Source: Candidatus Falkowbacteria bacterium (GTDB lineage: Bacteria > Patescibacteriota > Patescibacteriia > Patescibacteriales > UBA12465). From it: DNA of 64,000 nt. Both the position numbers and the translations under genes were made by a program. The notes beneath the pieces are model-generated. The model was not told where the DNA came from. It did not search any database and worked only from the letters and a program-made list of their open reading frames with translations. Shown here piece after piece: positions 2,611-53,036 of the stretch. Each line of letters opens with the position of its first letter. Position 1 is the first letter of the stretch. The stretch spans positions 33,872-97,871 of the forward strand of contig CAINDR010000015.1 in assembly GCA_903847415.1 (NCBI GenBank), written 5' to 3'.

Positions 2611-3017
2611 GATCAGAAATTTTAAACGCTCTTTATACCAAGTTGTACAACATGGAGGGCATCAAAGCAGTTTTTAAATATAACAAAGGGCATTTTACAA
2701 AGTACCCTGTCGCTGTGATTCTTGGTAGCGATAATTCTAAAGCAAGAGAAAGTGTTAAAACAATTAAGAAAACTTATAAATTTAAAGTGCAGATTTTTCA
2801 AGAAATAAATCAGGAGGCACGAGGTCAGGAAGCTGGGGAAGATGTCATTATCACTATTGGCGATCGTATAGACGATGCATTTGATTCTGATGATACGCTT
2901 GGTGGAGTTTGTGATGATGTGTCGGTTATTAGTTCGTATGCATGGGATGATCGTGAGCTTTTGATGAGGGTTTTGCAATTGGAGATAGTTTGCACAAAAC
3001 TTAAACAATTAATTTAA
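2607..3017 (+). CDS. Phage tail component (tail terminator-like), putative
   Basis: 136 aa, translationally coupled (ATGA overlap), in the head-tail joining region. Confidence 0.3.
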   Translation: MRSEILNALYTKLYNMEGIKAVFKYNKGHFTKYPVAVILGSDNSKARESVKTIKKTYKFKVQIFQEINQEARGQEAGEDVIITIGDRIDDAFDSDDTLGGVCDDVSVISSYAWDDRELLMRVLQLEIVCTKLKQLI

Positions 3018-3022
3018 AATTT

Positions 3023-3187
3023 ATGTCTATTAAAAAAAGTGAGATTGAGGACAAATCAATTAAGCCTAGCAAAAGTGATAATTTAACTGAGTTTAACTAT
3101 CCGGAGTACAATATCACCGTCAAGGCTAAAAATCAGGCAGAAGCCGATGAATTATTAAATCAAATTATTAATCAAGAAAACATATGA
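3023..3187 (+). CDS. Small phage ORF (54 aa), unknown
   Basis: ATG at 3023 to TGA at 3185-3187. Overlaps the start of the next gene by 4 nt. Absent from the ORF track because it is under 60 aa. Confidence 0.2.
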   Translation: MSIKKSEIEDKSIKPSKSDNLTEFNYPEYNITVKAKNQAEADELLNQIINQENI

Positions 3188-4161
3188 GCGAATCAATCAA
3201 AAGAAAATATAACATAGGCATTGGCAGAGAGACTACGAGGGGCGTAAAAGTTACGCCAAAGTATTGGCTTAAGCCACTTAGTGCTGAATATAACGATAAG
3301 ATTGAAACTGTTGCCAGCGAGCGTGCTTGCGGAGTCATTGAGGATTCCGAGGAGATGATCATTAAGAATAAATATTCGGATGGTCAAATCCAAGGTGAAG
3401 CCTTTGACAAGAGTTTTGGCTTATTCATTTTAGGGGCGTTGGGTCAGGTTAGTAGCGTGGCTAAAGTTGGTGACTTAGCGGTTTATGATCACACCTTTTC
3501 AGTTTTACAGTCAGCTAAACATCCAACTTTTACTATTGAGGTTAAAAGGGGTGATGTGGAGCAGAAGTCTTACGGCAATTGCGTGATTGAAAGTTTAAAG
3601 ATTGAAAGTCAGGCACATGATTATGTTAAATTCGAAGCCAAGTTAAAAGGCAAGACCAGTGGAGTGGCTACGAATAGTGCTGGTTATGTGACTGAGAATT
3701 ATTTTTTAGGCAAAGATGTCAGTGTGAAATTGGCTGATAATTTATCAGGACTTGACTCGGCGACAGTGATTGATGCTAGAAAAATCACTATACAGATTGC
3801 CAAGAATTTAGAAGAAGATAAGCGACTAGGTGCCGATGAGCCGAATGATTTTCTTAATAAAGAATTATCTATTGAGGGAACGCTGGAGATATTGTTTAAG
3901 GATAGCACGCTTAAGGACTACGCTTTGAATGGCATTCAGAAAGCCTTGCGGATTGATATCGTTAACACAAACAAAGTCATCGGATCATCTAGTAATCCTC
4001 GATTAAAGATTGATCTGGCTAAGATTAAATTTAAGGATCCAGTCGAGGGTGGTGATAATAACGATATCGTTAAAGTCACAGTTGGCTTTAAGGGATTATA
4101 CTCAGCGACTGATTCCAAGAGTATTGAAGCCGTATTAACTAATTTAGAAACTAATTACTAA
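3184..4161 (+). CDS. Major tail protein (putative)
   Basis: 325 aa, beta-rich. Located between head-tail joining genes and the chaperone/tape-measure pair. Confidence 0.4.
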   Translation: MSESIKRKYNIGIGRETTRGVKVTPKYWLKPLSAEYNDKIETVASERACGVIEDSEEMIIKNKYSDGQIQGEAFDKSFGLFILGALGQVSSVAKVGDLAVYDHTFSVLQSAKHPTFTIEVKRGDVEQKSYGNCVIESLKIESQAHDYVKFEAKLKGKTSGVATNSAGYVTENYFLGKDVSVKLADNLSGLDSATVIDARKITIQIAKNLEEDKRLGADEPNDFLNKELSIEGTLEILFKDSTLKDYALNGIQKALRIDIVNTNKVIGSSSNPRLKIDLAKIKFKDPVEGGDNNDIVKVTVGFKGLYSATDSKSIEAVLTNLETNY

Positions 4162-4165
4162 TTAT

Positions 4166-4471
4166 ATGCCGATATTAAAAGATTCAAGAGAAGTTAAAAA
4201 TATCCTTTTACCAGAAAGTGGAATAACGATCAGAATTAAAGATGGTTTGCTGGCTGGAGATTTAGAGGCTTTGGAAAGTGAGCAGAGCGAATTTAAAAAG
4301 ATGATCGCTATGATTACTAGATTGATTATTGATTGGGATGCCGAGGGTGAGGATGGTGTAAAATTGCCAATTAATTTTAATACAGTGAATTTGTTTGGCT
4401 TTACTGATTTGAAGTTTATTCAGGATAATTTGTCATTTTTAAAAAGTTTTTTAGCGGTAACTCCGAGTTAG
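4166..4471 (+). CDS. Tail assembly chaperone (putative)
   Basis: 101-aa acidic protein immediately upstream of the tape measure gene, the canonical position. Confidence 0.35.
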   Translation: MPILKDSREVKNILLPESGITIRIKDGLLAGDLEALESEQSEFKKMIAMITRLIIDWDAEGEDGVKLPINFNTVNLFGFTDLKFIQDNLSFLKSFLAVTPS

Positions 4472-4636
4472 TCTATGAAATAAAGCGAGCGGTTCGGTAC
4501 AGGGAATGGAGCCACCAAACAGTCAAACTATTCCTGTGCCAAGAGATGGGTTGGACTGAGGAGGAGTTTTTGAGTCAAAGAGTCGAGTTCATTAGGGGTA
4601 TGTTCACATTTATTATGGAAATAAAAGAAGTGCAAA

Positions 4637-6268
4637 ATGGAAAATAGAGAACTACAAATTATATTAAAAGCGGTTGACGAAGCATCTAGTGAGATTAAAA
4701 AAGTCAGCCAAGCCATGGATGGCATGACCGGTAATGTGAAAGAATCATCGGAATCTTTTGGTTTGATGACCAAGGCGGTGGCTGTTGGCAATTTGGCTTA
4801 CAACGCTTTGTATAGTGTGGTTACTAAGGTTGCAGGTGGTATTACAAGCCTGGTTAAAGAGAGCGTGGGGCTGGCTGGTCAATTAGAACAGTCAAAATCA
4901 GTTATTTATAAACTGGGGGAGAATAACAATTGGACTAGACAGCAAATCGATGGCTTGGTCAAAAGTATTCGTGAAGAAAACAAAGACATGTTGACGGCTA
5001 TTGATTTGACGAAGACTGCCATCATGACTCACATGAACGAAAAACAGGCTTTAGAATTGATTACTCGTGGTCGTGATGTGGCGGCTACAGCTAATCGCAA
5101 TTCTAATGATGCTATTAAGGCCATGATGGAATCGGTTATTAAGTTGAGACCTGAATTGCTTAGTGAGTATGGTATCGAGATTAACTTGGTTAAAGTCTAT
5201 GGTGATTTTTCCAAGGCGATGGGTATTAAAACGAGTCAGATGACTTATGCTCAGAAAACTCAAGCCATGTATAACGCCGTTGTTCAGGAGGCAACGAGAA
5301 TGCAGGGTGCTTATCATGAGGCGATGGGTAGTTGGTATAAATTATCGATGTCTGTGCAGGATGGCATTGTTAGTTTAAAGCTCATCTTGGGTGATTTGCT
5401 GGATGATGCTATGAAACCTTTGGTTAATTACGTTTATGAGGCAATTAAGACTTTTAGAAACTGGGCATATACCGATGACAATGAGTTGAATCCAAAACTT
5501 AAGGAAACAGCAGCTATTATCGGCACAGTGCTACTGCGATCATTCGAATTGATTAGACTAGCCGTTATTGAATTGATTGCCGTTTATAACGCCTTATCTG
5601 ATTTTTTTCGTGAGGGCATGAAGATTGTTTCGGATTATAAAATTTTGTTAGATATTTTTCAGAATTCATGGAATAACATTGCTTTAGTGTTTAAGCAAAA
5701 CCTGTTACCAGAATTGCAGAAGTTGTGGCAGGCGTTATTGCCACTCCAGCCATTTTTAGAAATATTGGCAAAGATTATCGGCGTTATCTTATTAGGTGCT
5801 TTAATTGCTGTTGTTAAAATTATTGAAGTTAGTTTAATAGTGCTGATTCAGGGATTGACCTTGGTTATTCAGAAGGCGGTGGAATGGATTAATTTTTTCA
5901 AGGCTGGCTGGGAGAGTGTGACTGGAGTTATTTCAAATGTCATTGGTTATATTGATAGTTTAATCAGCAAACTTAACAGCTTGAATGTTGTTTCAAATGC
6001 TAAGAATGCGGTTAGTGGAATGCTAGGCTTTGGCGGAGCAAGAGCTAGTGGCGGTAGCGTTTATGGCGGTCAGGCTTATTTAGTTGGCGAACAGGGGCCC
6101 GAATTGTTTGTGCCAAGCGGAGGTGGCAATATCGTGCCAAATAATCGTTTAGGCGGTGGAAGTATTGTGATCAATATGTCAGGCAATACTTTTCTTGATA
6201 GACAGAGTGCGGAGAAAATTGGCGACATGATGATTAAAAGGTTAAAGGCTAATAATTTGCTCGGATAG
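4637..6268 (+). CDS. Tail tape measure protein
   Basis: 543 aa, long helical/coiled-coil N-terminus, internal hydrophobic segment LLPLQPFLEILAKIIGVILLGALIAVVKIIEV, Gly-rich C-terminus. Canonical position after the chaperone. Confidence 0.6.
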   Translation: MENRELQIILKAVDEASSEIKKVSQAMDGMTGNVKESSESFGLMTKAVAVGNLAYNALYSVVTKVAGGITSLVKESVGLAGQLEQSKSVIYKLGENNNWTRQQIDGLVKSIREENKDMLTAIDLTKTAIMTHMNEKQALELITRGRDVAATANRNSNDAIKAMMESVIKLRPELLSEYGIEINLVKVYGDFSKAMGIKTSQMTYAQKTQAMYNAVVQEATRMQGAYHEAMGSWYKLSMSVQDGIVSLKLILGDLLDDAMKPLVNYVYEAIKTFRNWAYTDDNELNPKLKETAAIIGTVLLRSFELIRLAVIELIAVYNALSDFFREGMKIVSDYKILLDIFQNSWNNIALVFKQNLLPELQKLWQALLPLQPFLEILAKIIGVILLGALIAVVKIIEVSLIVLIQGLTLVIQKAVEWINFFKAGWESVTGVISNVIGYIDSLISKLNSLNVVSNAKNAVSGMLGFGGARASGGSVYGGQAYLVGEQGPELFVPSGGGNIVPNNRLGGGSIVINMSGNTFLDRQSAEKIGDMMIKRLKANNLLG

Positions 6269-6269
6269 T

Positions 6270-7772
6270 ATGAATGTCATTGTAAAAATAAATCAAATAA
6301 ACAGAACAAGCCTGATTGATTGGGAAAGTTTTGGTATTGAAGACAATATCAATGAACAGCCGAATCTATGCAATTTCACAATCAGAGTTTTTGAGGGGCA
6401 GAGTTTTAAACCCGAGATTAGTGATGTGGTGGAGATTTATGACGGCAATTTAAAAATCTTTGGTGGCAAAGTCATCAGGGTTGGCAGTTCTAGTTCTAGT
6501 GATCTTAATTTTTATGAAGTAGAGGCTAAAGATTACACGCTTGATCTCGATCGTGTTTTAGTGACTGAACGGTTTGACGACATGGCTGGAAATGAAATCA
6601 TTGCCTTTATTATTGATAATTATTTAAGTGGCTCAGGAGTAACTTATGGCAATTTAAATTGTCCAATTGTTGTCAGTGTTATTGTTTTTGATCAGACAAG
6701 CGTTAGCAAATGTTTGACCGAGTTATGCGAGTTGTTGAACTACAGTTGGTATATTGATTATGACAAAGACCTGCATTTGTTTGCTAAAAATGAAAAACCA
6801 GCACCGTTTAATTTAAGTGATGACAGTAGCAATACTTATATCAGGGACAGTTTAGTGATTGATAGTGATTTGAGTCAGCTCCGAAATGTAGTGATTATAG
6901 AAGGGGGCGAGATTACTTCGGATTATCCACGCACCAATACTCAAGTCGGCAATGGTACAAAAAAGAGTTTTGCTACTGATTATAAATTTGCTAATAAACC
7001 GACAGTCAAAATTGGTGGAGTGGTTATGAATGTTGGTATTGATTTTCTAGATAATGATGTGAGTTTTGATTGTTTGTGGAATTTTAATGAAAAGTACATC
7101 AGGTTTGTTAATGCTCCGGTTAGTAATGTGGTTATTGAGATGTCCGGACAATATTTAATTCCGATCATGGTGCAAGTTGAGGATGAGGGCAGTATTTCGC
7201 AGTATGGCAGATTTGAGTTCAGTAAAGTTGATAAGAATATTAAGAGTTCAGAGGAAGCTAAGATGTATGGTGAAGCACAGTTGGGTGCTTATGCATTTAC
7301 AATTAGAGAGGGTGCTTTTAGAACTTATGAAAGTGGTTTATCTTCTGGTCAAACAATATCTATAAATTTGATTAGCAGGAATATTTCCGAGAGTTTTTTA
7401 ATAATGAGAGTGTCATTAAAAATGTTGACCGCTAGTCATGGAGAGTGGACAGTTGAACTAGCGACCATGAGAACTTTGGGTATCATTAGTTTTTTACAAA
7501 AGTTGTTAATTGATCAGCGTAAAAAAATAACCTTGAACGAAGATGTGGTTTTGAAAAAATATTATGTTTTAAGTGAGACTGCAAATTTTGATGAAAATAT
7601 AACGGTTAAAATAAAAGAGCAAGATTATCAGTTGCTTGGCATGACTGAGGATATTTTAAAAGATCCCTTTGGGGCAGGTGTTAAGCCTGATTTTGTTTTA
7701 GCTCCGTATGTGCCAACGGGTCAGACTGATCCCGAGAGAGAATTTTATTTAGATAGAGCTTTTTTAAGTTAA
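6270..7772 (+). CDS. Distal tail / baseplate protein (putative)
   Basis: 500 aa. Start overlaps the tape-measure stop. Positional inference. Confidence 0.35.
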   Translation: MNVIVKINQINRTSLIDWESFGIEDNINEQPNLCNFTIRVFEGQSFKPEISDVVEIYDGNLKIFGGKVIRVGSSSSSDLNFYEVEAKDYTLDLDRVLVTERFDDMAGNEIIAFIIDNYLSGSGVTYGNLNCPIVVSVIVFDQTSVSKCLTELCELLNYSWYIDYDKDLHLFAKNEKPAPFNLSDDSSNTYIRDSLVIDSDLSQLRNVVIIEGGEITSDYPRTNTQVGNGTKKSFATDYKFANKPTVKIGGVVMNVGIDFLDNDVSFDCLWNFNEKYIRFVNAPVSNVVIEMSGQYLIPIMVQVEDEGSISQYGRFEFSKVDKNIKSSEEAKMYGEAQLGAYAFTIREGAFRTYESGLSSGQTISINLISRNISESFLIMRVSLKMLTASHGEWTVELATMRTLGIISFLQKLLIDQRKKITLNEDVVLKKYYVLSETANFDENITVKIKEQDYQLLGMTEDILKDPFGAGVKPDFVLAPYVPTGQTDPEREFYLDRAFLS

Positions 7773-40913: not shown

Positions 40914-41666
40914 ATGAATCCAATTATTGAAGCAAAAAATTTATCTGTAAATTACGGTCAAACAGAAGCTTTAAAAAATGTCTCCTTGATGGTTGAGCAA
41001 GGTGATTTTATTGGTTTAGCTGGACCAAATGGGGCAGGAAAAACTACCTTAGTTAAAGCTATTCTTGGATTATTGCCAGTGTTAAGTGGAAAAATAGAAC
41101 TTTTTGGTATAGAAAAAGAAAAATTTAATGATTGGGGTAAAATTGGTTATTTGCCACAAAAACTTTCTACCATCAATGCTCTTTTTCCAGCAACAGTTGA
41201 TGAAGTTGTTACTTTGGGATTATTATCACAAAAAAAAATTCCCAGAAGAATTGGATTTAGTGATCGCAAAAGAGCAAATGAAATCTTGCAAGAATTGGGA
41301 ATTGATAACCTCAAGAAAAAAATGCTTTCGGAGCTTTCGGGAGGGCAACAGCAAAAAGTTCTTTTAGCGCGAGCTTTGGTTTCAAATCCTCAGGTTTTAA
41401 TTTTTGATGAACCTTCAACCGCCCTTGACCCCGAATCTAGAGAATTTTTCTTTCAGTTAATACAAAGATTAAATAAGCAGAAAGGTATTACCGTTATTCT
41501 GATCACTCATGATACTAGTTATATTGGGCAATATGCCAATAAACTTTTGTATGTTGATAAGAGTCTTGTTTATTTCGGTAAATTTTCTGATTTTTGTCGA
41601 GATCAGAAAATGAATTCTTATTTTGGCGAATACGAACAACATATAATTTGTCATCAACATAACTAA
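40914..41666 (+). CDS. znuC: Zinc ABC transporter ATP-binding protein
   Basis: Walker A GPNGAGKTT, signature LSGGQQQK and Walker B LIFDEPST. Confidence 0.8.
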   Translation: MNPIIEAKNLSVNYGQTEALKNVSLMVEQGDFIGLAGPNGAGKTTLVKAILGLLPVLSGKIELFGIEKEKFNDWGKIGYLPQKLSTINALFPATVDEVVTLGLLSQKKIPRRIGFSDRKRANEILQELGIDNLKKKMLSELSGGQQQKVLLARALVSNPQVLIFDEPSTALDPESREFFFQLIQRLNKQKGITVILITHDTSYIGQYANKLLYVDKSLVYFGKFSDFCRDQKMNSYFGEYEQHIICHQHN

Positions 41667-42499: not shown

Positions 42500-43084
42500 T
42501 TGAAAAGTATTATTATAATGACTTCAGATATTGACAATCATTCAACGGTCTTAAGCGATGAGGAGTTAATGCAGCAATCGTTGTCCAACCCTCAAGCTTT
42601 TGCTACGCTAATCGCTCGTTACAAAGGGTTATTTTTTCGTTATCTAAAAAGTTTTTCTGGTTTGCGAGATGATGAGATTGAAGATGTCGTCCAAATATCT
42701 TTTATAAAAATATATCGCAATCTCAAAGCTTTTAGAACTGATTTGAAGTTCTCCTCCTGGGCTTATCGGATTATCCACAATGAAGCGGTGGATGAGATTA
42801 AAAGGCGACGGCGACAAGGAAGTGAAAATGAGCTAGATTTAGATTTGCCAGACAAGATATCTTTGGTTGATCAATTAGATGAGAAGTTGGAGAGAAAAAA
42901 AGTTTTGGCAGTTTTAAAAAAAATGAGTCCTGATTATCGAGAAATATTAACACTTTATTTTTTTGAAGGGCAATCATATCAAGAAATTTCAGATATCCTT
43001 AGGCGGCCATTGGGAACGGTTTGCACTCAGATTAATCGGGCTAAAAAACAGTTTAAAGAATTATACCAAAAATATGTTAGATGA
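42500..43084 (+). CDS. ECF-type RNA polymerase sigma factor (sigma-70 regions 2 and 4)
   Basis: Region 2 FSSWAYRIIHNEAVD and region 4 REILTLYFFEGQSYQEISDILRRPLGTVCTQINRAKK. Confidence 0.75.
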   Translation: MKSIIIMTSDIDNHSTVLSDEELMQQSLSNPQAFATLIARYKGLFFRYLKSFSGLRDDEIEDVVQISFIKIYRNLKAFRTDLKFSSWAYRIIHNEAVDEIKRRRRQGSENELDLDLPDKISLVDQLDEKLERKKVLAVLKKMSPDYREILTLYFFEGQSYQEISDILRRPLGTVCTQINRAKKQFKELYQKYVR

Positions 43085-43841
43085 TTTAGAAAAAAAAATT
43101 ATCAATGAAATCAGTAATGGTAATTTAAAATCAACTAGTCGTTTCTTTTTGACGCTAAAATCTCTTGGTCGTTCTTTTTTGTTGGCTGTATTTTTGTTTC
43201 TTTCCGGATTATTTCTTTCTGTGCTCTATTTAATCATTAGACACGGAGATTGGGATCTTTATCGTTTTTTTGGTTATTCGCCATTATCTTTTTTTGTAGT
43301 TGCTTTTCCTTATTTTTGGTTAGTGGGCGGCTTGTTTTTTCTGATTTGGTCTTTAATTATAACCAGAAAAACTAATCAGGCTTATCGGTATCCTCTGGTT
43401 TATAATGGAATTTTAGGGATGCTTATTATTCTAATAATTTCAATGATTTTTGTATGGTCTGGGGTGGGGATAAAAACTGAATCTTTTTTATCTTCCAATT
43501 ATTTTTATCGTCAGGCTAACTACTTGAGATCATTATGGGACAATCCAGACAGAGGTTTGTTGGCTGGAACGCTTGAGCGCCTAGCAAATGACCAGTTATC
43601 ATTACGCGATTTTTCTGGAAAATTATGGACCCTCAATCTAAGAGAAGAAAAGATTATAAATCAATCATTATTGAATCCTGGTAATCGGGTGAAAATAATC
43701 GGATTTATAGAAGATGATTATTTCGTTGTTAAAGAGGTTCGTCATTGGGAATGCGGCTGTCCTCATTGTGCAATGATTAATAGCGAATGCTCTAGTTGTT
43801 CTTCCGGTTTTTGTTCAGATTCTTCTTGTCGGGTGAAATAA
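43074..43841 (+). CDS. Anti-sigma-like membrane protein with Cys-rich C-terminus
   Basis: Overlaps the sigma stop (ATGTTAGATGA). About four TM segments. C-terminus WECGCPHCAMINSECSSCSSGFCSDSSC. Confidence 0.35.
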   Translation: MLDDLEKKIINEISNGNLKSTSRFFLTLKSLGRSFLLAVFLFLSGLFLSVLYLIIRHGDWDLYRFFGYSPLSFFVVAFPYFWLVGGLFFLIWSLIITRKTNQAYRYPLVYNGILGMLIILIISMIFVWSGVGIKTESFLSSNYFYRQANYLRSLWDNPDRGLLAGTLERLANDQLSLRDFSGKLWTLNLREEKIINQSLLNPGNRVKIIGFIEDDYFVVKEVRHWECGCPHCAMINSECSSCSSGFCSDSSCRVK

Positions 43842-43903
43842 AATAGCGCTTGGTAAAGTAGTATTTATAGAAAGCGCTTTTATTAATAATAATTTTAATC
43901 ATT

Positions 43904-44173
43904 ATGACAAAAAAAACTATTTCAGCTTTTGCTGTTGCAACATTGTTTTTGGGTGGTTTAGCCTTTTTTATTGGATCAAATGCTCTAAAAACTGAAGCAA
44001 AAGAAGCTGTGTTGACTGATGTAGGCTCTAAACCAGCCGCCTGTAAAGCTTTAATAAAAGATGGTTCTTGTGGCTGCACTGCAAATGGTGGAACTTGTAA
44101 TTGTGGAAAAACTGGATCAAATTGTGCTGCTAACGTTAATCAAAAAGCTACTTGTGGCTGCGGGGCAAAGTAA
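43904..44173 (+). CDS. Secreted/membrane-anchored Cys-rich small protein
   Basis: 89 aa. N-terminal hydrophobic helix. Ten Cys in the last 45 aa with CGC, CNC, CGC spacing. Confidence 0.4.
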   Translation: MTKKTISAFAVATLFLGGLAFFIGSNALKTEAKEAVLTDVGSKPAACKALIKDGSCGCTANGGTCNCGKTGSNCAANVNQKATCGCGAK

Positions 44174-44200
44174 TTAAGTTTTCAACAATTTTTGAAGCAA

Positions 44201-44225
44201 AGCCAGTTTAATCACTGGCTTTTTT
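44201..44225 (+). terminator. Rho-independent terminator
   Basis: AGCCAGT ttaatc ACTGGCT followed by TTTTT. Confidence 0.6.
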
Positions 44226-44375
44226 GTTTGCCAAGGCAGTTTTATAAGAAAATCCTCCAATAAACTACATAGATTGTATTTTGTTTTTTTCTGATTTTTT
44301 AAATAATATCTTTTTACAATAGACCTATTTTTTAAAGTCCTATCCTTATTTCTTTATCTTTTCTGAAAAATAAGC

Positions 44376-44381
44376 TATAAT
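44376..44381 (+). promoter_or_regulatory. Candidate -10 element TATAAT upstream of the putative RT-associated ncRNA
   Basis: Perfect TATAAT 8 nt upstream of inverted-repeat arm a1. No convincing -35. Confidence 0.3.
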
Positions 44382-44389
44382 AATGAAAC

Positions 44390-44572
44390 AATTATCCTCA
44401 AAACCCTTTTTTAGGGATATTAACAGCTATCGTCAATCAAGTCTTTTTTTACCGTTAATATCGGTGACTTGTTCTTTGATAATAGTTTAACGAAGCGCGG
44501 CCTCACGGTTTTGCTCCTCGATGGATTAAAATAATATTTCAGAGATTTCTCTTAAATATCTTGAGGATAATT
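44390..44572 (+). ncRNA. Putative retron-like (msr/msd-type) structured ncRNA bounded by a perfect 12-bp inverted repeat
   Basis: AATTATCCTCAA (44390-44401) pairs with TTGAGGATAATT (44561-44572), which ends 6 nt before the RT ATG. The interior has a compound hairpin CAAGTC-T7-ACCG-ttaatat-CGGT-GACTTG (44438-44471) and further stems. Structure was predicted by eye only. Confidence 0.35.
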
Positions 44573-44578
44573 AAAAAT

Positions 44579-45781
44579 ATGTTTGAAAAGATTATTAGCG
44601 ACGCCAATTTACAGGCGGCGTATTTGAAGATTGTTGAGCAATTTGCTGCCGAGAAAAAAGGTTCTCGTTATCATGGCTTGGACAATCTTTTTTTAAAAGA
44701 TTTTGATTTAGATTCTTGCGAATTGATTAAATTAATTCGGCAAGAATTGCAAACTAAAACAGAAATTAGTCCGGCTTTAGCAATAAAAATTCCGAAAAAA
44801 AACAATCCCGAAAAATTTCGGGAGATTTTTGTTTATAATTTAAAAGAGAGAATTAAAGCTCAGGCAATTTTTCAAATCCTTTTGCCCGTATTTGAAAAAC
44901 ATTTTTCTGATCGTCTTTTCTCTTATCGTCCCGGTAAGCCACCGTATCTAGCTGCAAAATATTTTTGTCGCCGCTATCGAGATTCTTTTACTCAAGACTA
45001 TCTTTTTGTGGTTGATTTGGAAAATTATTCTGATTTAATTGATCATGACTTATTGTTAAGTTATTTATCTGAAATTTTTGTTGAAGAAGAAGTTATTTCT
45101 ACTCTCAAGTTATTTATTGGGAATAAGGTGTATCGTTCTGGAACTATTGAAAAATTGAAACAGGGCTTGGTTCAGGGGGTTCCCTTGATTGCAATGTTCT
45201 CAAATCTTTACTTAAGTGATCTTGATTTTAAGTATCAAAAAAAAGTGCCATTTTATCTTAGGGTTGGTGATGATATTGCTTTTTTTGATCGCTATCCTCA
45301 AAAATTAGAAATTTTAAAAAATAATTTTGTTAGCGATCTTCAGAAAAAAAAGTTAAAAGTTAGTGAAAGCAAACAATATTTTGGTCCAGCAAATGGAGAA
45401 TTTTCTTTCCTTGGTTATTCTTTTTTTCAGGGCCTTATTAGTTTGGAAAAGAAATATTTAAAAAGAATTGTTTTGGAGTGGAAAAATATTTTGAGCAAAC
45501 AAAAATTAAGCGATAACAAAAAAGACTTGTTCATAAAAAAGATAATGTTTAATCCCCGTAGTAATTATAATTTTCAATTTGAAAAAATTATTAAGGATAA
45601 ATCGCAAATTAACAACTCTGAACAGATTAAAAAAGTTTCCGAAGAATTTTTTAAAATTATGACTAAATTTTTTTATACTCGCTATTCTCCTCGCAATCGT
45701 CGCTTGCTAGAAGATCGTCTTCGATCTTTTGGCTTGAAGTCACTTTATTTTTTTTATAAAAAATTTCATTATGAGCGTTAA
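44579..45781 (+). CDS. Reverse transcriptase (retron / group-II-like family, free-standing)
   Basis: RT motifs 1-2 IPKKNNPEKFREIF...FSYRPGKPPYLA. Motif A FVVDLENYSDLIDHDLL. Motif B' GLVQGVPLIAMFSNLYL. Motif C RVGDDIAFF (YxDD variant). Motifs 6-7 FSFLGYSF. ATG at 44579 (track starts at TTG 44561). No intron RNA domains and no maturase/endonuclease extension. Confidence 0.8.
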   Translation: MFEKIISDANLQAAYLKIVEQFAAEKKGSRYHGLDNLFLKDFDLDSCELIKLIRQELQTKTEISPALAIKIPKKNNPEKFREIFVYNLKERIKAQAIFQILLPVFEKHFSDRLFSYRPGKPPYLAAKYFCRRYRDSFTQDYLFVVDLENYSDLIDHDLLLSYLSEIFVEEEVISTLKLFIGNKVYRSGTIEKLKQGLVQGVPLIAMFSNLYLSDLDFKYQKKVPFYLRVGDDIAFFDRYPQKLEILKNNFVSDLQKKKLKVSESKQYFGPANGEFSFLGYSFFQGLISLEKKYLKRIVLEWKNILSKQKLSDNKKDLFIKKIMFNPRSNYNFQFEKIIKDKSQINNSEQIKKVSEEFFKIMTKFFYTRYSPRNRRLLEDRLRSFGLKSLYFFYKKFHYER

Positions 45782-47456
45782 CAAAAAACAAATTAATTTA
45801 TTGAAATCAATTCGCTCAATTCGGAAAAATTATCAAGAGGTGATTTTGAGTAAAAGGCATTGGCGATTTTTGTTTGGTTTTTTACTTGATCATCGTTTGA
45901 GTTTTGTGATTTTAGTTTTTTTGTTCTTTGCTCAGGGTTTAATTGAAGCAATTTTTATTATTTTTAGTCGAAACCAAATATCTGGCGGTCTTTTGCCTTT
46001 TTTTTGGGAATTTTTAGGACTTTTGCTATGTTTATTTTTTCTTAATTCTTATTTTTCAATTCGTCAAGAAAAAACTTTGGGAGTTCTTTTTGCTAACAGT
46101 TTAAGAAAAAGAATTTTTGAAGATTATCTTCGTCGTCCGTCTGCTAGTTTGAATCAAAAAAACCAAGCTGATTTAATCGCTAAAATGTCTTATCAATTAC
46201 CGCTAGCTTCAATGGGGGTGGTTAATTCTTTTTTTGGTGCTTTGCGTTGGCTGATTAATATTTTAGTAGTACTGATACTACTAATTAAAAGTGATTTATC
46301 TTGGTCCTTAGCTTTGTTGTTTTCTTTAATCTTTTCAGCGGTAATTGGTCTGATTAGTTATTTTATTTCCAAAAGTTATGTTTCTCAGGAAGTAACTTTT
46401 TATTCTCAAATTATTAGAGAGGTTGGAATTTCTACTAATGATCGATCTTTTCTTAAAATTTTTAATCAAGAAAAAAAAGTTCTTCAGCGATTTGATCAAT
46501 TAGTAGATTTTGATTCTTTTTTTCGAATTCGTCGGGATCTTTGGTTGAAATTAAGTGTAAAAATTCTTTTTGCCCTTTTATTACTATTATCATTATGGTT
46601 TCATTTTTCTTCATCAAATCTATTATTGGAATTTAATTTAATCTCCTCAGAAAAGAAAATAATTCTTCTATTTCTGTTTATTTATTTTTCTCGAATTTTG
46701 TATGAAAGTTTACGGGTTGGTCTTTATCTTTGGCCAGCACAGCTTGGTTTGTATTTAACGATTCCAAAGTCTGGTCGTAATTTTTGTCGAGATCGGGTTC
46801 TTAAATTTGAGACCAGTTTAAATTTTTATGGTCGAAAACTAAAATTATTTTTGGGAGCGAGTTATCAGAAAAATTTTTCTTGGTTTTTTGAGAAGGGAAA
46901 GCGTTATCTTTTTTATTCTCCTTCTTCGACTGGAAAATCATCACTGGCTCGGGCCTTTTCTGGTCTAGAAGTATTTGAGCCAAAATCTTTAAGAATTAAA
47001 ATTGACGGCAAGCGTCTTGATTTTCAGAGTTGGCAACGTTTTAGCGAGGGAATTTGTTTTATTGATCCAAATTTTTTTTCTGAGAAAAGTATTTTTGAAT
47101 TTATTATTGGTCAAAATAGGAAGAATCAAGATCTTCCTTCAGTAGAGAGTGTTTTTCAAGTTCTTCGTCTTTATCCGGAGTTATTAACAAGAATTTCTCG
47201 GGAAGGAAACTTTAATGTTAGCGCTGCTTCTGTTCTAGGTAGCCCGATTAGTGCTTTTGCTCTTTATTTGGCTCGTTGCTTGGTGAGCAAGCCAGCTTTA
47301 GTGGTTATTGATAATTTTTGGCTAGACTTAGCTTACGAAGAAATCAATAAAATGCTATTATTATTAGACCAGGAATTACCAAATTCAATAATTGTTGTTT
47401 TTTCTAGAAAAGACAATAGTTATTTTAATTATCATCAAAAATATGAACTTAATTAA
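45771..47456 (+). CDS. ABC-exporter-like membrane protein with degenerate nucleotide-binding domain
   Basis: Overlaps the RT stop by 11 nt. About six TM helices, then an NBD-like region. It has a P-loop-like SPSSTGKSS, a degenerate signature, and Walker B VVIDNF without the catalytic Glu. Confidence 0.5.
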   Translation: MSVNKKQINLLKSIRSIRKNYQEVILSKRHWRFLFGFLLDHRLSFVILVFLFFAQGLIEAIFIIFSRNQISGGLLPFFWEFLGLLLCLFFLNSYFSIRQEKTLGVLFANSLRKRIFEDYLRRPSASLNQKNQADLIAKMSYQLPLASMGVVNSFFGALRWLINILVVLILLIKSDLSWSLALLFSLIFSAVIGLISYFISKSYVSQEVTFYSQIIREVGISTNDRSFLKIFNQEKKVLQRFDQLVDFDSFFRIRRDLWLKLSVKILFALLLLLSLWFHFSSSNLLLEFNLISSEKKIILLFLFIYFSRILYESLRVGLYLWPAQLGLYLTIPKSGRNFCRDRVLKFETSLNFYGRKLKLFLGASYQKNFSWFFEKGKRYLFYSPSSTGKSSLARAFSGLEVFEPKSLRIKIDGKRLDFQSWQRFSEGICFIDPNFFSEKSIFEFIIGQNRKNQDLPSVESVFQVLRLYPELLTRISREGNFNVSAASVLGSPISAFALYLARCLVSKPALVVIDNFWLDLAYEEINKMLLLLDQELPNSIIVVFSRKDNSYFNYHQKYELN

Positions 47457-48639
47457 ACAAATTAGGCAAGGCAACTGTCGCGATAGTTTGCCAATGTTTT
47501 TTTTCTCCACAGTTATTTTGTTGTTAGTGATGTTCTTGTTGTTTATTTTTTTCAAATACTATTTTAATTCAGATAATAGTTCTGATTTTAGCTCCACAAA
47601 AACTCTTGTTGTTGATGAGCCGTTTTCTGGGCAGCTTTATTTTAATGATGAATTAGGAGAGAAGGTTTTTTCTCCAGTAATCATCGAGGCAATTTCTAAA
47701 GCAAAAAAAAGTGCAGAATTAGCAGTTTATTCGATGGATGATCAAGGAATTCGTGATGCCCTTTATCGAGCTTCTAAGCGAGGCGTAAAAGTAACAATGG
47801 TGCTTAGTGATAAGCGAAAAGATGGGCACGATCAAGTTCTTCAAAATCTGCCGAAAGAGATTAAACGGATTGATGCGCCGTCAAGTGAAGGTTATATGCA
47901 CCACAAGTTTTTAATTCTTGATCGAGGATCAAATCAGGAAAAGTTATTTTTTGGTTCTTATAACTTTACCGCTCTTCAGGAAAAATATGATCCTTCTTTT
48001 TTGCTAGAAACTACTCGACCAGAGATTGTGAAGATTTTTGGTCAAGAATTTGATCGCTTAAAAAATGAAGTTTATGGTCGGAAGAAACTTAACTCTCGTC
48101 AAATTTATTTGATGACTAGAATTAAATATCCAGAAGGATTTTTGGAGATTTGGTTTTCTCCACAGTTATCTCGTGGTGGTTTGAGGGAAAGAATGCTTGG
48201 TTTGATTAATAATTCGAAGGACAATCTCAAGGTAATGATCTGGAATTTTACCAGCAAAAGCATGGCACTTGATATTGCTGATGCGGCAGTCAGAAAAAGC
48301 GTGAGAATTATTGCTGATGATTTAAATTATTCACTTCCAGAGTCCGCTTTCAACACCTTGTTGTCTGAAAAGGGAAGTCGTTCTTTGGAAAAATTAGAAA
48401 TAATTACTGATGCCAAACGAAATGAAGAAGCGATTCGCTTGTCTGGTGATAAAAGTTTGAATTCTTTCTTACATCATCACCTTCTTTTGGTTGATGATCG
48501 GGTAGCAGTTTTTGGCAGTGGCAACTGGAGTAATAATGGTTTTTATAGCAACGATGAGTCAACGATGATTTCCGATATTAATATTTTAGTTCAGCCATTC
48601 ATTGAGTCTTGGCAAAAAAATTATGAGCACAATAAGTAA
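47443..48639 (+). CDS. Phospholipase D-family (HKD) protein, N-terminal TM anchor
   Basis: Overlaps the upstream stop by 14 nt. HKD motif 1 is HHKFLILD...GSYNFT. Motif 2 LHHHLLLVDD...GSGNWS has K replaced by H. Confidence 0.6.
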   Translation: MNLIKQIRQGNCRDSLPMFFFSTVILLLVMFLLFIFFKYYFNSDNSSDFSSTKTLVVDEPFSGQLYFNDELGEKVFSPVIIEAISKAKKSAELAVYSMDDQGIRDALYRASKRGVKVTMVLSDKRKDGHDQVLQNLPKEIKRIDAPSSEGYMHHKFLILDRGSNQEKLFFGSYNFTALQEKYDPSFLLETTRPEIVKIFGQEFDRLKNEVYGRKKLNSRQIYLMTRIKYPEGFLEIWFSPQLSRGGLRERMLGLINNSKDNLKVMIWNFTSKSMALDIADAAVRKSVRIIADDLNYSLPESAFNTLLSEKGSRSLEKLEIITDAKRNEEAIRLSGDKSLNSFLHHHLLLVDDRVAVFGSGNWSNNGFYSNDESTMISDINILVQPFIESWQKNYEHNK

Positions 48640-48649
48640 TTAATTTTTT

Positions 48650-49081
48650 ATGATTTTGAGAAAATTTTTTCATTTCTTTGATCTCTTGGAAAACAAGATT
48701 AGACAAACTTTAAGCCGCCATCCTTTTATTTATGCTTTTTTAGGTGGTGTTGGAGTAGTAGTCTTTTGGCGTGGAGTTTGGGTGACGTCGGATTTTTTAA
48801 TGGCCAAAATCACAAAAATTCCTGTTGATATTTTGTGGTGGGATGGACCATTAACCGTATTAGTTAGTTTATTGATTCTTTCTCCTCTTGGTATCTTTGT
48901 TTCTAGCTTTATCGGGAATGAGGTGATTATTTCGGGGATTAGAGGCGAAAAAAAGATGTTTGAGAAAACAGAAGCCGAAATTGAAAGCGAATTAACAATT
49001 GGTTCCAGAACTTATAGTAGTATCTCGGAAGTAGTGAATCGTTTGAAAAATATTGACAAAAAACTTGATAAAATAAAATAA
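48650..49081 (+). CDS. Small membrane protein (2 TM)
   Basis: 143 aa. Starts 10 nt after the PLD gene. TM segments FIYAFLGGVGVVVFWRGVWV and LTVLVSLLILSPLGIFVSSFI. Confidence 0.3.
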   Translation: MILRKFFHFFDLLENKIRQTLSRHPFIYAFLGGVGVVVFWRGVWVTSDFLMAKITKIPVDILWWDGPLTVLVSLLILSPLGIFVSSFIGNEVIISGIRGEKKMFEKTEAEIESELTIGSRTYSSISEVVNRLKNIDKKLDKIK

Positions 49082-49143
49082 TTTTTTATTTTTTGCGTAT
49101 TAATTAATAGAACCCCTTTGTAGGAGTTTAAAGGCTTAAATGC

Positions 49144-49737
49144 ATGTTGGAACCATTGGAAGATTATTCTTCTTTTTCAGACAATGAATTAGTGCTTTTA
49201 GCCTTAAAAAATCAGGCCATTTTTGCTATTTTAATGAATCGTTATAGTGAAAAATTAACTAGATATGCTCAACGAATCTCTAATTTAAGAACCGAAGAGG
49301 TTGAGGATGTTATTCAAGAGGTGTTTATTAAAGTCTATAAAAACCTCAATGATTTTGAAAGCGATCTCCGATTTTCTTCTTGGATTTATCGAATTACTCA
49401 TAATCAGGTTATTAGCCACCATCGAGCTAAAAATGCTAGACCTCAAACAGTGGAGATCGACGATGCTTTGGCTAATCGTTTGCGGGCGGAAGTTGACTTG
49501 ACGAAGGAAATCATTAGTCAAGACTTAAAGGTGGAAATCGCGACTTTATTAGCAAAATTAAAACCTATTCATCGAGAAATTTTAGTTTTGCGTTTTTTTG
49601 AGGAAAAGAGTTATGAAGAGATTTCAGATATTTTAAAAAAACCAAGTGGTAGTGTGGCCACTTTGATTTATTCAGCCAAAAAAGAATTAAAAGAAAAGTA
49701 TGAAAAATCTGAGCGACAAAGTCCTGGAAAAAATTAA
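49144..49737 (+). CDS. ECF-type RNA polymerase sigma factor (paralogue of 42500-43084)
   Basis: Region 2 FSSWIYRITHNQVIS and region 4 REILVLRFFEEKSYEEISDILKKPSGSVATLIYSAKK. Clearly alignable with the upstream sigma. Confidence 0.75.
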   Translation: MLEPLEDYSSFSDNELVLLALKNQAIFAILMNRYSEKLTRYAQRISNLRTEEVEDVIQEVFIKVYKNLNDFESDLRFSSWIYRITHNQVISHHRAKNARPQTVEIDDALANRLRAEVDLTKEIISQDLKVEIATLLAKLKPIHREILVLRFFEEKSYEEISDILKKPSGSVATLIYSAKKELKEKYEKSERQSPGKN

Positions 49738-50440
49738 ACAAGAATCAATTAAACCCCATCCTCGTTGGTATTTTTTAGCACGAGATTGTTTCTTGTGGTT
49801 TTTAGTTTCCTTGGTTACTATTTTAGGTGGAATTGCCTTTTCTTTGGTGATGCTTTTTCTTTATTTTCAGCGTTTTGGTTTTAGGAATCCTCATCCCGCT
49901 AGTAATTTTAATTGGCTACTTGTTTCCATTCCTTATGCTTGGTTATTCGTTTTTGTGGTGTTAGTGGTTGTGATTTACTATAATCTTAAACATCTCAAAA
50001 AAAGCTATAAATATCCACCTTACTTATTAATTATTGCATCATTAGTGGCTAGTATTGTTTTGGGTGTCATTATTTCAAATTTTGGAGTTCATCGGCGAAT
50101 GAATGATGAGTTTTCTCGTCGTGTGCCTTTCTATGGGCGAGTTTTTGATGCCAGGGTTCCAGCCTGGGGAAGACCGATGGAAGGAGTTCTAGCAGGGAAA
50201 ATTGGCAGAGTAGAGGAGGATTTTTTTCTTCTTGAAGATTTTCATGCCAAAGAATGGAAAATTGTTCTCCTCAAAGAAACAGAGGCAGTTGAATCAATTA
50301 AAATTGTTTCTGGTCAGTTGATTTTAATCAATGGTCGCCAGGAAGGTCCAGGGGTATTTGTGGCTGAAGAAATTTTTCCTTGGGATGGTTGTCCAAAAAA
50401 GTGTAAATTAATCAATTCGAATTTTCCAAGAATTCGGTAG
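49700..50440 (+). CDS. Anti-sigma-like membrane protein (paralogue of 43074-43841)
   Basis: Overlaps the sigma 3' end. Same architecture as 43074-43841. C-terminus has a single CPKKC. Confidence 0.3.
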   Translation: MKNLSDKVLEKIKQESIKPHPRWYFLARDCFLWFLVSLVTILGGIAFSLVMLFLYFQRFGFRNPHPASNFNWLLVSIPYAWLFVFVVLVVVIYYNLKHLKKSYKYPPYLLIIASLVASIVLGVIISNFGVHRRMNDEFSRRVPFYGRVFDARVPAWGRPMEGVLAGKIGRVEEDFFLLEDFHAKEWKIVLLKETEAVESIKIVSGQLILINGRQEGPGVFVAEEIFPWDGCPKKCKLINSNFPRIR

Positions 50441-52355: not shown

Positions 52356-53036
52356 ATGATCAAATTTAAAAATATTTGCAAGAATTATTTTAGTGGCGAA
52401 TTAGAAACTAAAATTTTAAAGAATATTTCCTTTGAAATTAAAGCGGGTGAATTTGTGGCAATCACCGGCCCATCTGGTTCGGGAAAATCAACAATCATGA
52501 ATATTTTGGGAGCCTTAGACTCGCCAACTAGTGGAGAATATTTTCTTGATGGTGCGGATGTTTCCAAATTATCTGATGACGAGCTTGCTGTTATTCGTTG
52601 CAATAAAATTGGTTTTGTTTTTCAGTCATTTAATTTATTATCTCGCACGACAGTTCTGAGAAATGTTTGTTTGCCTTTGGTGTATGCGGAAGTTTCTTCT
52701 AAAAAAAGAGAAGAGATTGCTAAAAAATCTTTAGAAGCAGTCTCAATGCCGGAAGATCGTTGGCACCACTATTCTAATCAATTATCAGGTGGACAAATGC
52801 AAAGAGTGGCAATTGCTAGGGCTCTAGTGAATAACCCTTCACTAATTTTAGCCGACGAACCAACTGGTAATCTTGATTCCAAAACCGGTCAAATTGTTTT
52901 GCAGACTTTTAAAGATTTAAATAAAAAAGAAAAACGCACGATTGTTTTAATTACTCATGATTTAGAAATTGCAAAACATGCCGATCGAATTATTCGTCTT
53001 CGGGATGGTGAAATTATTGATGATCAAGAGTCTTAA
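52356..53036 (+). CDS. ABC transporter ATP-binding protein (MacB/LolD-like)
   Basis: Walker [10 protein letters not shown], signature [15 protein letters not shown] and Walker [12 protein letters not shown]. Confidence 0.8.

Follow-up and report, generated by a model that had tools for sequence, protein, structure and literature searches.

Two overlapping plus-strand genes on contig CAINDR010000015.1 of Candidatus Falkowbacteria bacterium encode the membrane module of one conserved four-part cassette, which consists of a structured leader RNA, a reverse transcriptase (RT), a protein resembling ABC exporters (ABC-like protein) and a member of the phospholipase D superfamily (PLD). This assignment, and the view that the four parts make one functional module, are firmly supported. 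All coordinates are positions in the window, that is, the whole 64,000-nucleotide (nt) stretch of the contig that was analysed, and the cassette elements all lie on its plus strand. The leader RNA of about 185 nt (44387–44574), delimited by covariation and a covariance model, is followed by the RT gene (44579–45781; 400 amino acids (aa), catalytic motifs intact). The ABC-like gene (45771–47456; 561 aa), which overlaps the RT gene through its stop codon by 11 nt, encodes a half-transporter with a nucleotide-binding domain (NBD) that appears catalytically dead. The last open reading frame (ORF) runs from TTG 47392 to 48639, and its most likely start is not this TTG, because homologues and a 14-nt overlap with the stop of the ABC-like gene point to ATG 47443. 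From there, it encodes a putative membrane-anchored, two-lobed phosphodiesterase of 398 aa (47443–48639). Similarly, the RT most likely starts at ATG 44579, which gives a 400-aa protein identical to P0146, rather than at TTG 44561, which falls within a stem of the leader RNA.

As the best explanation overall, for which we see a little less than an even chance, the cassette would be a module with an RT-coupled surface phosphodiesterase, most likely a conflict system. A preliminary description of the window had placed both proteins in the membrane and associated them with an RT and a non-coding RNA. That much is borne out: both are predicted membrane proteins, and both are obligately linked to the RT and to a conserved structured RNA.

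Linkage of the Cassette Genes

About 70 distinct cassette loci had enough surrounding sequence for the gene order to be checked, and all of them have RT, ABC-like gene and PLD gene in this order, with overlapping genes and in varying neighbourhoods. When the ABC-like protein was used as the starting point, 48 loci were found in 45 species-representative assemblies (45 of 185,579 such genomes carry the cassette), and every contig with room has the three genes in the same order. When the PLD was used as the starting point, both the RT and the ABC-like gene were present wherever a metagenome locus reached 29% identity and extended far enough upstream. Individual examination of cassette-family contexts gave the same picture: the trio with overlapping genes was seen in nine of nine, including those of the most divergent RT, ABC-like and PLD members, and it persists in two ultra-divergent cassettes.

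The three protein families are sharply bounded. Among 1.84 billion representative proteins, a profile of the ABC-like protein had only 104 matches at E ≤ 1e-10, a number that rose to 1052 when the limit was relaxed to E ≤ 1e-3. Thus, the ABC-like family is tiny and far from mainstream exporters. The E-values of PLD hits jump from 2e-47 to 2e-18 as the cassette family ends, and those of RT hits jump from 3e-63 to 1e-18, at which point the group II intron RTs set in. Such E-value gaps part each family from its nearest outgroup, and by sequence each of the three is a cassette-specific subfamily.

The ABC-Like Protein

In the AlphaFold model of the ABC-like protein, built with 25 homologues (pLDDT 81), an N-terminal helix is followed by six long transmembrane (TM) helices and a C-terminal NBD. 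Together with the family alignment, the model places the six-helix transmembrane domain (TMD) at residues 42–330 (45894–46760), and the alignment puts the degenerate NBD at residues 345–561 (46803–47453). A Foldseek search of the PDB with this model retrieved MsbA, TmrAB, PglK, TM287/288 and TAP at E of about 1e-14, with 14–17% identity. The predicted structure, a six-helix TMD fused to an NBD, is that of a type IV ABC exporter, as had been proposed from the sequence of the window. The elbow helix at the N-terminus, the cytoplasmic extensions of the TM helices and the coupling helices are common to the model and MsbA, TmrAB, PglK and TM287/288. In Pfam, ABC_tran is marginal (26.9 bits against a cut-off of 25) and ABC_membrane is below threshold (20.1 against 28), and NCBIfam gives weak matches to MsbA and CydD and nothing stronger.

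Conservation of the NBD motifs was judged from an alignment of 25 family members. The P-loop SPSSTGKSS (residues 383–391; 46917–46943) still conforms to Walker A: G388 is invariant, K389 is conserved in at least 90% of the sequences, and many members have the full GxxxxGKT. The signature position is occupied by GSPIS in place of LSGGQ (residues 490–494; 47238–47252). Walker B and the D-loop read LVVIDNFWLDL (47298–47330), in which D514 and N515 of VVIDNF are invariant, as is W517, and the D-loop Asp is conserved. The P-loop, the absence of LSGGQ and the lack of a catalytic Glu in VVIDNF had all been noted in the preliminary description, and the alignment confirms them and extends the loss to two further motifs, since the Q-loop Gln and the H-loop His are missing throughout the family. 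The Q-loop region contains FIDPNF here and a conserved "FFDPxF" segment across the family, and the H-loop His is replaced in IIVVFSRKDN (47388–47417), where FS stands at its position. Compared with type IV ABC exporters, the subfamily of the window therefore keeps the P-loop Lys, the Walker-B Asp and the D-loop Asp, but it lacks the whole catalytic set of Q-loop Gln, LSGGQ, Walker-B Asp-Glu (the Glu being an invariant Asn) and H-loop His. Two ordinary ABC ATPases in the same window (40914–41666 and 52356–53036) retain LSGGQ, the Walker-B Asp-Glu and then the H-loop His. Therefore, the degeneracy is specific to the ABC-like protein. It is firmly supported by these motifs that the NBD would be unable to run the canonical ATP-hydrolysis cycle. 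In TM287/288 and CFTR one active site is kept, whereas in a homodimer of the cassette protein both sites would be dead.

It had also been suggested that the protein binds nucleotide without hydrolysing it. This fits the subfamily of the window, in which nucleotide binding may persist, but not the family as a whole, because divergent cassette members have wholly lost Walker A and/or Walker B. At the locus of one such protein, P0359, an RT with RVGDD and a PLD with HHK and HFH are still found on either side. Thus, nucleotide binding is not a conserved core of the function, and the NBD is, as far as the alignment can tell, a decaying pseudo-enzyme domain or scaffold whose decay has proceeded stepwise across the family. 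Family-invariant residues of the TMD include E59, R112, K138, W160, SQEVTFYS (205–212), FDSFFRIRRDLW (247–258), Y305, R308 and GLY (317–319). The most conserved TMD residues fall into two groups: one in the membrane cavity (E59, R159/W160, Y305 and R308) and the other just beneath the inner membrane face (N109, R112, K138, SQEVTFYS and FDSFFRIRRDLW).

The PLD-Superfamily Protein

Pfam PLDc_2 matches the PLD in two stretches at 112 bits (cut-off 27). Motif 1 is a canonical HxK motif, HHKFLILD ... GSYNFT (residues 153–176; 47899–47970). Motif 2, HHHLLLVD ... GSGNWS (residues 344–363; 48472–48531), has the form HxH(x)4D(x)6GSxN, in which the second Lys is replaced by His. Across 28 family members, H153, K155, D160, N174, H344, H346, D351, G358 and N361 are invariant. 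Thus, the change of Lys to His is a fixed feature and not a sign of decay, and membership of the PLD superfamily with a complete but modified two-lobed active site is firmly supported by the motif pair, although the chemistry of the site can only be predicted from it. The variant follows cassette membership, the ultra-divergent loci L094 and L146 included. The family-wide invariance shows that the features of the ABC-like protein and of the PLD did not arise by chance.

The model of the PLD (pLDDT 91.6) has one N-terminal TM helix and a two-lobed domain. The canonical HKD motif, the HxH variant and the N-terminal TM anchor, all noted in the preliminary description, are thus confirmed, the last as a predicted signal-anchor helix at residues 18–37 (47494–47553). 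The flank before this helix contains on average 4.8 Lys/Arg and 0.5 Asp/Glu, and the 15 residues after it contain 2.2 and 1.8, respectively. This asymmetry predicts a topology with the N-terminus inside and the catalytic domain outside. Both motifs read HHK in the nearest relatives outside the cassette (22–27% identity), which carry a lipobox or a signal peptide, so that the PLD subfamily of the cassette derives from exported PLDs. Location of the catalytic domain outside the cytoplasmic membrane is thus well supported, but predicted. With such a topology, the protein is unlikely to be an intracellular nuclease acting on invading DNA.

The closest solved folds are those of two-HKD enzymes, namely bacterial PLD, vaccinia F13 and PLD3/PLD4 (TM-score about 0.6–0.65; E 1e-20 to 1e-17), and the best named sequence matches are nucleases: NucT, DrmC, Nuc and Zucchini/MitoPLD. 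With NucT, Nuc and Zucchini nearest in sequence and PLD3/PLD4 among the nearest folds, the chemistry of the PLD is, by analogy, most likely nuclease-like. A phospholipid or a wall phosphodiester may nevertheless be its substrate.

The comparison with each of these enzymes has its limits. Nuc, NucT, Zucchini and DrmC share the HKD motif and the GSxN segment with the cassette protein, and NucT and Nuc are exported enzymes. However, Nuc, NucT and Zucchini are dimerising single-domain proteins of about 155–200 aa, whereas the cassette PLD has two fused lobes with the Lys-to-His change in lobe 2. Assignment as a Nuc/NucT nuclease was rejected on this architecture and on a score of 67.6 bits against 297 for NF010492, and assignment as the DISARM protein DrmC was rejected on 39 bits against 133 for NF038319, there being no DISARM genes in the cassette or its flanks. 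In architecture the match is to PLD3/PLD4, vaccinia F13 and the bacterial two-HKD PLDs, in which an N-terminal anchor precedes a two-lobed, non-cytoplasmic HKD domain, the last property being predicted for the cassette PLD. PLD3 and PLD4 are type II membrane proteins with 5′ exonuclease activity on single-stranded DNA. With 12–16% identity, this is a likeness of fold and no evidence of orthology. In all these enzymes, moreover, both motifs are HxK, and there is neither an RT nor an ABC partner.

Reverse Transcriptase and Leader RNA

The RT has intact catalytic motifs (D146, R-V-G-D231-D232, QG, K265 and LG). Its polymerase residues are invariant across the family, with "RVGDD" at the position of YxDD. 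The RT falls into a discrete clade with group II intron RTs as nearest outgroups. Among PADLOC profiles, it matches UG26 (E 1.9e-31) and UG17 (E 4e-25), and the UG26 match is about as strong as the group II RT match. The sole match to a retron-type RT model is a weak one, RT_IX (E 1.6e-6).

The leader RNA starts at about 44387 and ends at 44574, five bases 5′ of the RT ATG. Its closing stem P1 is formed by AAUUAUCCUCAA and UUGAGGAUAAUU, the 3′ arm of which holds the Shine-Dalgarno sequence of the RT, and it also contains internal hairpins and a pseudoknot in which GAUAUUA pairs with a UAAUAUC loop. In an alignment of 22 loci (A4), with the pseudoknot included, 89% of the cells are paired, against 74% in shuffled and about 42% in slid alignments. 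Compensatory changes occur in 43 of the 53 pairs, and none of 500 shuffles reached the observed values. A covariance model (R1) scores 143 bits at the locus of the window and matches the coding strand directly 5′ of the RT in 49 cassette loci, with no match in 12 control loci. The RNA has no match among Rfam families. The covariation count and the covariance model replaced a cruder test of the closing stem, in which G-U pairs were allowed in AT-rich sequence and which did not discriminate (13.3 of 14 against 12.1 in shuffles); RNAalifold on untrimmed upstream regions missed the closing stem.

The leader RNA may be a partner or template of the RT, a cis-regulator, or both. In several cassettes, two tandem copies lie 5′ of the RT: L009 (4323–4497 and 4626–4793), L018, L022, L037 and L042/L072. 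In L005, the RNA is found at 2618–2785, about 2 kb 5′ of the RT, and two pilin-like ORFs lie between them.

Possible Functions of the Cassette

How might these parts act together? In the mechanism that we propose, the four parts would be transcribed as a unit. The ABC-like protein, as a dimer, would no longer be an ATP-driven pump and would serve as a transmembrane scaffold or transducer. The RT-RNA complex or its product would dock at the conserved vestibule of this dimer on the cytoplasmic side and at its pseudo-NBD, and the TM domain of the dimer would contact the anchor of the PLD. An RT event, namely cDNA synthesis on the leader RNA or triggered via it, would then be coupled to the activity or the substrate supply of the surface phosphodiesterase. 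Once triggered, the membrane pair would damage the envelope or nucleic acid that is extracellular or entering the cell. With the PLD predicted outside and the RT-RNA complex in the cytoplasm, we infer that the ABC-like protein is the sole component able to connect them, whether as scaffold, transducer or conduit.

Stand-alone bacterial RTs with an adjacent RNA and effector genes, such as retrons and DRT2/DRT9, have repeatedly proved to be new immune mechanisms and tools. By analogy, the cassette could be a conflict or defence system of the retron/DRT type, with RNA, RT and effector, and we regard this as a real possibility that is somewhat short of an even chance. The layout is indeed that of retrons and DRT/UG systems (for example, UG17 with SLATT, and retrons with two-TM effectors), in which a structured non-coding RNA stands 5′ of a stand-alone RT and accessory genes follow, including those for membrane proteins. 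An upstream structured RNA with a terminal closing stem is present here; the match to retron RTs is weak, as mentioned above. In contrast to retrons and DRT/UG systems, the RT of the cassette resembles group II intron RTs equally well or better, the putative effector is predicted to face outward, and the defence role is drawn from analogy. UG26, one of the PADLOC matches of the RT, has been reported only with a YcjD-like endonuclease. The combination of RT, ABC-like protein and PLD was found neither in PADLOC, Pfam, NCBIfam and Rfam nor in the literature searched, which included the text of PMC9226505. A layout of RNA, RT and accessory proteins is already known, and an outward-facing effector with a pseudo-ABC scaffold was not found in any RT system of these sources.

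Several observations weigh against a defence role, or against parts of the mechanism. The cassette matches no system in PADLOC. Its flanking genes vary by lineage and are of housekeeping or envelope type, namely cupredoxin-like membrane proteins, ECF sigma factors, HlyD/MacB-type pumps, pilins and helicases. When 150 flanking proteins were compared with PADLOC and Pfam, only generic domains (helicase, ABC, sigma) and no clear defence-island signal were found. Among IMG/VR viral contigs, the ABC-like protein has no relative and the PLD only remote ones, and the cassette is absent from them. In the group of loci L022–L026, the cassette sits at one syntenic site beside core genes, and its divergence follows the same rank order as that of these genes, only faster. 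It is therefore vertically inherited in this lineage, which is less typical of defence islands. Moreover, a PLD that faces outward cannot reach phage DNA in the cytoplasm, and the leader RNA could be purely cis-regulatory, since stem P1 sequesters the ribosome-binding site of the RT. Finally, the contact between RT, ABC-like protein and PLD is a proposal, and the topology of the PLD is a prediction. Of the sensor-gated effector complex that had been suggested from the sequence of the window, the membrane pair tied to RT and RNA thus stands, and the gating and the defence role are inferred. The flanking context neither supports nor excludes defence, and a defence role is plausible, although unsupported by that context.

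One alternative is that the cassette serves the envelope or nutrition in an epibiotic lifestyle. The substrates of the surface PLD, which it would hydrolyse or remodel, would be phospholipids, phosphodiesters of the wall or nucleic acids outside the cell, with the ABC-like protein as a passive flippase or permease and the RT and RNA in a purely regulatory role. Patescibacteria depend on scavenged lipids and nucleotides, and such a function agrees with the predicted export of the PLD and its nearest relatives among lipoproteins, with the recurrent envelope-related neighbours (cupredoxin-like membrane proteins, pilins, ECF sigma factors and HlyD/MacB-type pumps), with the vertical inheritance in the L022–L026 lineage and with a stem P1 that resembles an OFF switch in sequestering the ribosome-binding site. 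However, it offers no reason for invariable translational coupling to a catalytically intact RT. A cassette found in 45 of 185,579 species-representative genomes, and in some of them twice, is also unlike a core metabolic function, and the PLD is not a cardiolipin synthase. We consider this explanation unlikely, although it counts, like the next one, as a serious rival.

Export or processing of nucleic acid is another explanation with a small share of the probability. Here the RT would copy part of the leader RNA, the single strand would enter the arginine-lined vestibule of a non-hydrolytic ABC-like channel, and the surface PLD would cut, trim or transfer it, so that DNA or oligonucleotides are secreted or bound to the surface for signalling, adhesion or interaction with a host. 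The predicted topology is what such a pathway would need, namely a cytoplasmic RT, an ABC-like protein that spans the membrane and a PLD on the outer side, and the PLD has a fold like that of the membrane exonucleases PLD3/PLD4. Conserved charges line the TM cavity and the inner interface (E59, R159, R308 and R252–R255), the ATPase is lost and the catalytic residues of the RT are kept. The tandem extra copies of the RNA in several loci suggest a trans-acting RNA substrate, inheritance is vertical, and the neighbours are envelope-related and not defence genes. On the other hand, passage of nucleic acid is not known for any type IV ABC fold, neither a cDNA product nor a template region was identified, and anionic lipid head groups, as in MsbA, are an equally good candidate for what the basic ring binds. 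What speaks for this explanation is architecture throughout. In a more specific form, which we consider quite improbable, the cassette would be a polymerase-coupled device for secretion or surface display: cDNA made by the RT from the leader RNA would be fed through the former, non-hydrolysing ABC exporter as a conduit, and the outward HxH PLD would cleave the strand or transfer it to a surface acceptor in a reaction like transphosphatidylation. If true, bacteria would here have a system for synthesising DNA on an RNA template and exporting it.

It is very unlikely that the cassette is a mobile retroelement, that is, a derivative of a group II intron with two cargo genes. The nearest relatives of the RT are indeed group II intron RTs/maturases, and the structured RNA abuts the start of the RT and holds its ribosome-binding site, an arrangement that recalls domain IVa of group II introns. 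The cassette also occurs in differing neighbourhoods. However, the group II intron model TIGR04416 scores 118.5 bits against a cut-off of 300, and Rfam finds no group II intron RNA family anywhere in the window, so that assignment as a group II intron was rejected. There is no RNA element 3′ of the ORFs, and the region 43800–49200 contains no repeat longer than 36 nt, no terminal or flanking repeats and no pair of template and variable repeats, by which a diversity-generating retroelement was likewise rejected. The divergence at the fixed syntenic locus parallels the rank order of the neighbouring core genes, and no genome was seen with more than two copies, which are then highly divergent. 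A housekeeping exporter and a cardiolipin-synthase-like enzyme that share an operon with the RT by chance, the alternative given in the preliminary description and echoed in public annotations ([quoted passage not shown] for the PLD, and "ABC-type multidrug transport system"), can be dismissed almost completely, given that the PLD scores 14.6 bits against 290 for TIGR04265 and 16.9 against 787 for NF009107, that both proteins occur solely within the cassette wherever upstream sequence existed (the ABC-like protein never without the RT, and the PLD in all relatives with at least 29% identity), that all hydrolytic ABC motifs are missing, and that the catalytic domain of the PLD is predicted outside the cell, whereas cardiolipin synthases of the ClsA type, which share the superfamily, two HKD-like lobes and a membrane anchor with it, are housekeeping enzymes with a cytoplasmic catalytic domain and HxK in both motifs.

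An RT-coupled surface phosphodiesterase, as preferred here, would be a combination for which we found no description: an RT with its own covarying, pseudoknotted RNA is tied to a degenerate protein of the ABC-exporter fold and to a predicted surface phosphodiesterase. Should the predicted topology be correct, whatever information or material the RT generates in the cytoplasm must act across the membrane, and to our knowledge no RT system does so. The ABC-like protein is a natural example of an ABC transporter fold turned pseudo-enzyme, found only next to the RT and the PLD, and the cassette-specific HxH variant of the PLD active site provides testable chemistry. The biology of Patescibacteria is largely deduced from genomes. 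When a module is conserved and passed on vertically in genomes as reduced as these, it is probably important for dealing with phages or hosts. In these ultra-small bacteria the cassette is always inherited as a unit, and its most likely role is in conflict or defence.

Distribution and Divergent Cassettes

Nearly all specifically labelled records of the cassette come from Patescibacteria, under the names Patescibacteria, Falkowbacteria, Magasanikbacteria, Parcubacteria/Paceibacterota and Peregrinibacteria. The labels "uncultured Gammaproteobacteria", "uncultured bacterium" (TPA assemblies), plain "bacterium" and Omnitrophota could not be verified. Two divergent paralogous cassettes are present in each of three metagenome-assembled genomes: PHAI01000003 (L006 and L023), JBAZBP01 (L010 and L043) and JBAXPN01 (L037 and L040).

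In the ultra-divergent cassette L146, the RT, the ABC-like protein and the PLD are encoded at 2795–3949, 3942–5549 and 5539–6696, respectively. A further one, L094 (18–3511), is barely recognisable and was identified by profile comparison. In both, the NBD of the ABC-like protein is without Walker A and Walker B, and the PLD keeps HxK and HxH. The RT of L094 has the motif RVGDN, so its polymerase may be inactive.

A locus in another organism, L058 (6001–11399), suggests by analogy that the trio is part of a wider theme. A distant RT (26% identity, with "FGDD") is followed there by overlapping genes, and a second RT lies downstream. The middle protein, of 697 aa with about 12 predicted TM segments, has no detectable homology to the ABC-like family. 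The last is an N-terminally anchored PLD-like protein of 698 aa with HIK... and HHQ..., which has no relatives in the metagenome scan.

Cassette Boundaries and Neighbouring Genes

At its 5′ boundary, the cassette is preceded by a plus-strand hairpin with a T-run resembling an intrinsic terminator (44199–44222), which was located by a terminator scan and by reading of the sequence and which ends the upstream gene. A TATAAT box of the -10 type (44376–44381, plus strand), found by reading of the sequence, lies about 6–8 nt 5′ of the first base of the conserved RNA. It is not in the list of the consensus scan, and it is taken here as the probable promoter of the cassette transcript. On the 3′ side, an ORF of 143 aa with two predicted TM segments (48650–49081) begins 10 nt past the PLD stop, with no intervening terminator. 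It is kept solely in the closest relative, L004 (72% identity), and is therefore placed outside the core cassette.

Upstream, just 3′ of genes for a Fur-like regulator and a Znu-type ABC importer, a gene at 43904–44173 encodes an 89-aa protein, hydrophobic in an N-terminal segment and rich in Cys and Gly in its tail (CGCTANGGTCNCGKTGSNC...CGCG), which may be a metal-binding protein or a peptide precursor. Two paralogous gene pairs flank the cassette (42500–43841 and 49144–50440), each consisting of an ECF-type sigma factor (194 and 197 aa) and then a membrane protein with a Cys-rich C-terminus. Synteny of the downstream arrangement of sigma factor, membrane protein, HlyD and ABC genes extends to several related loci, among them L004, L007 and L029.

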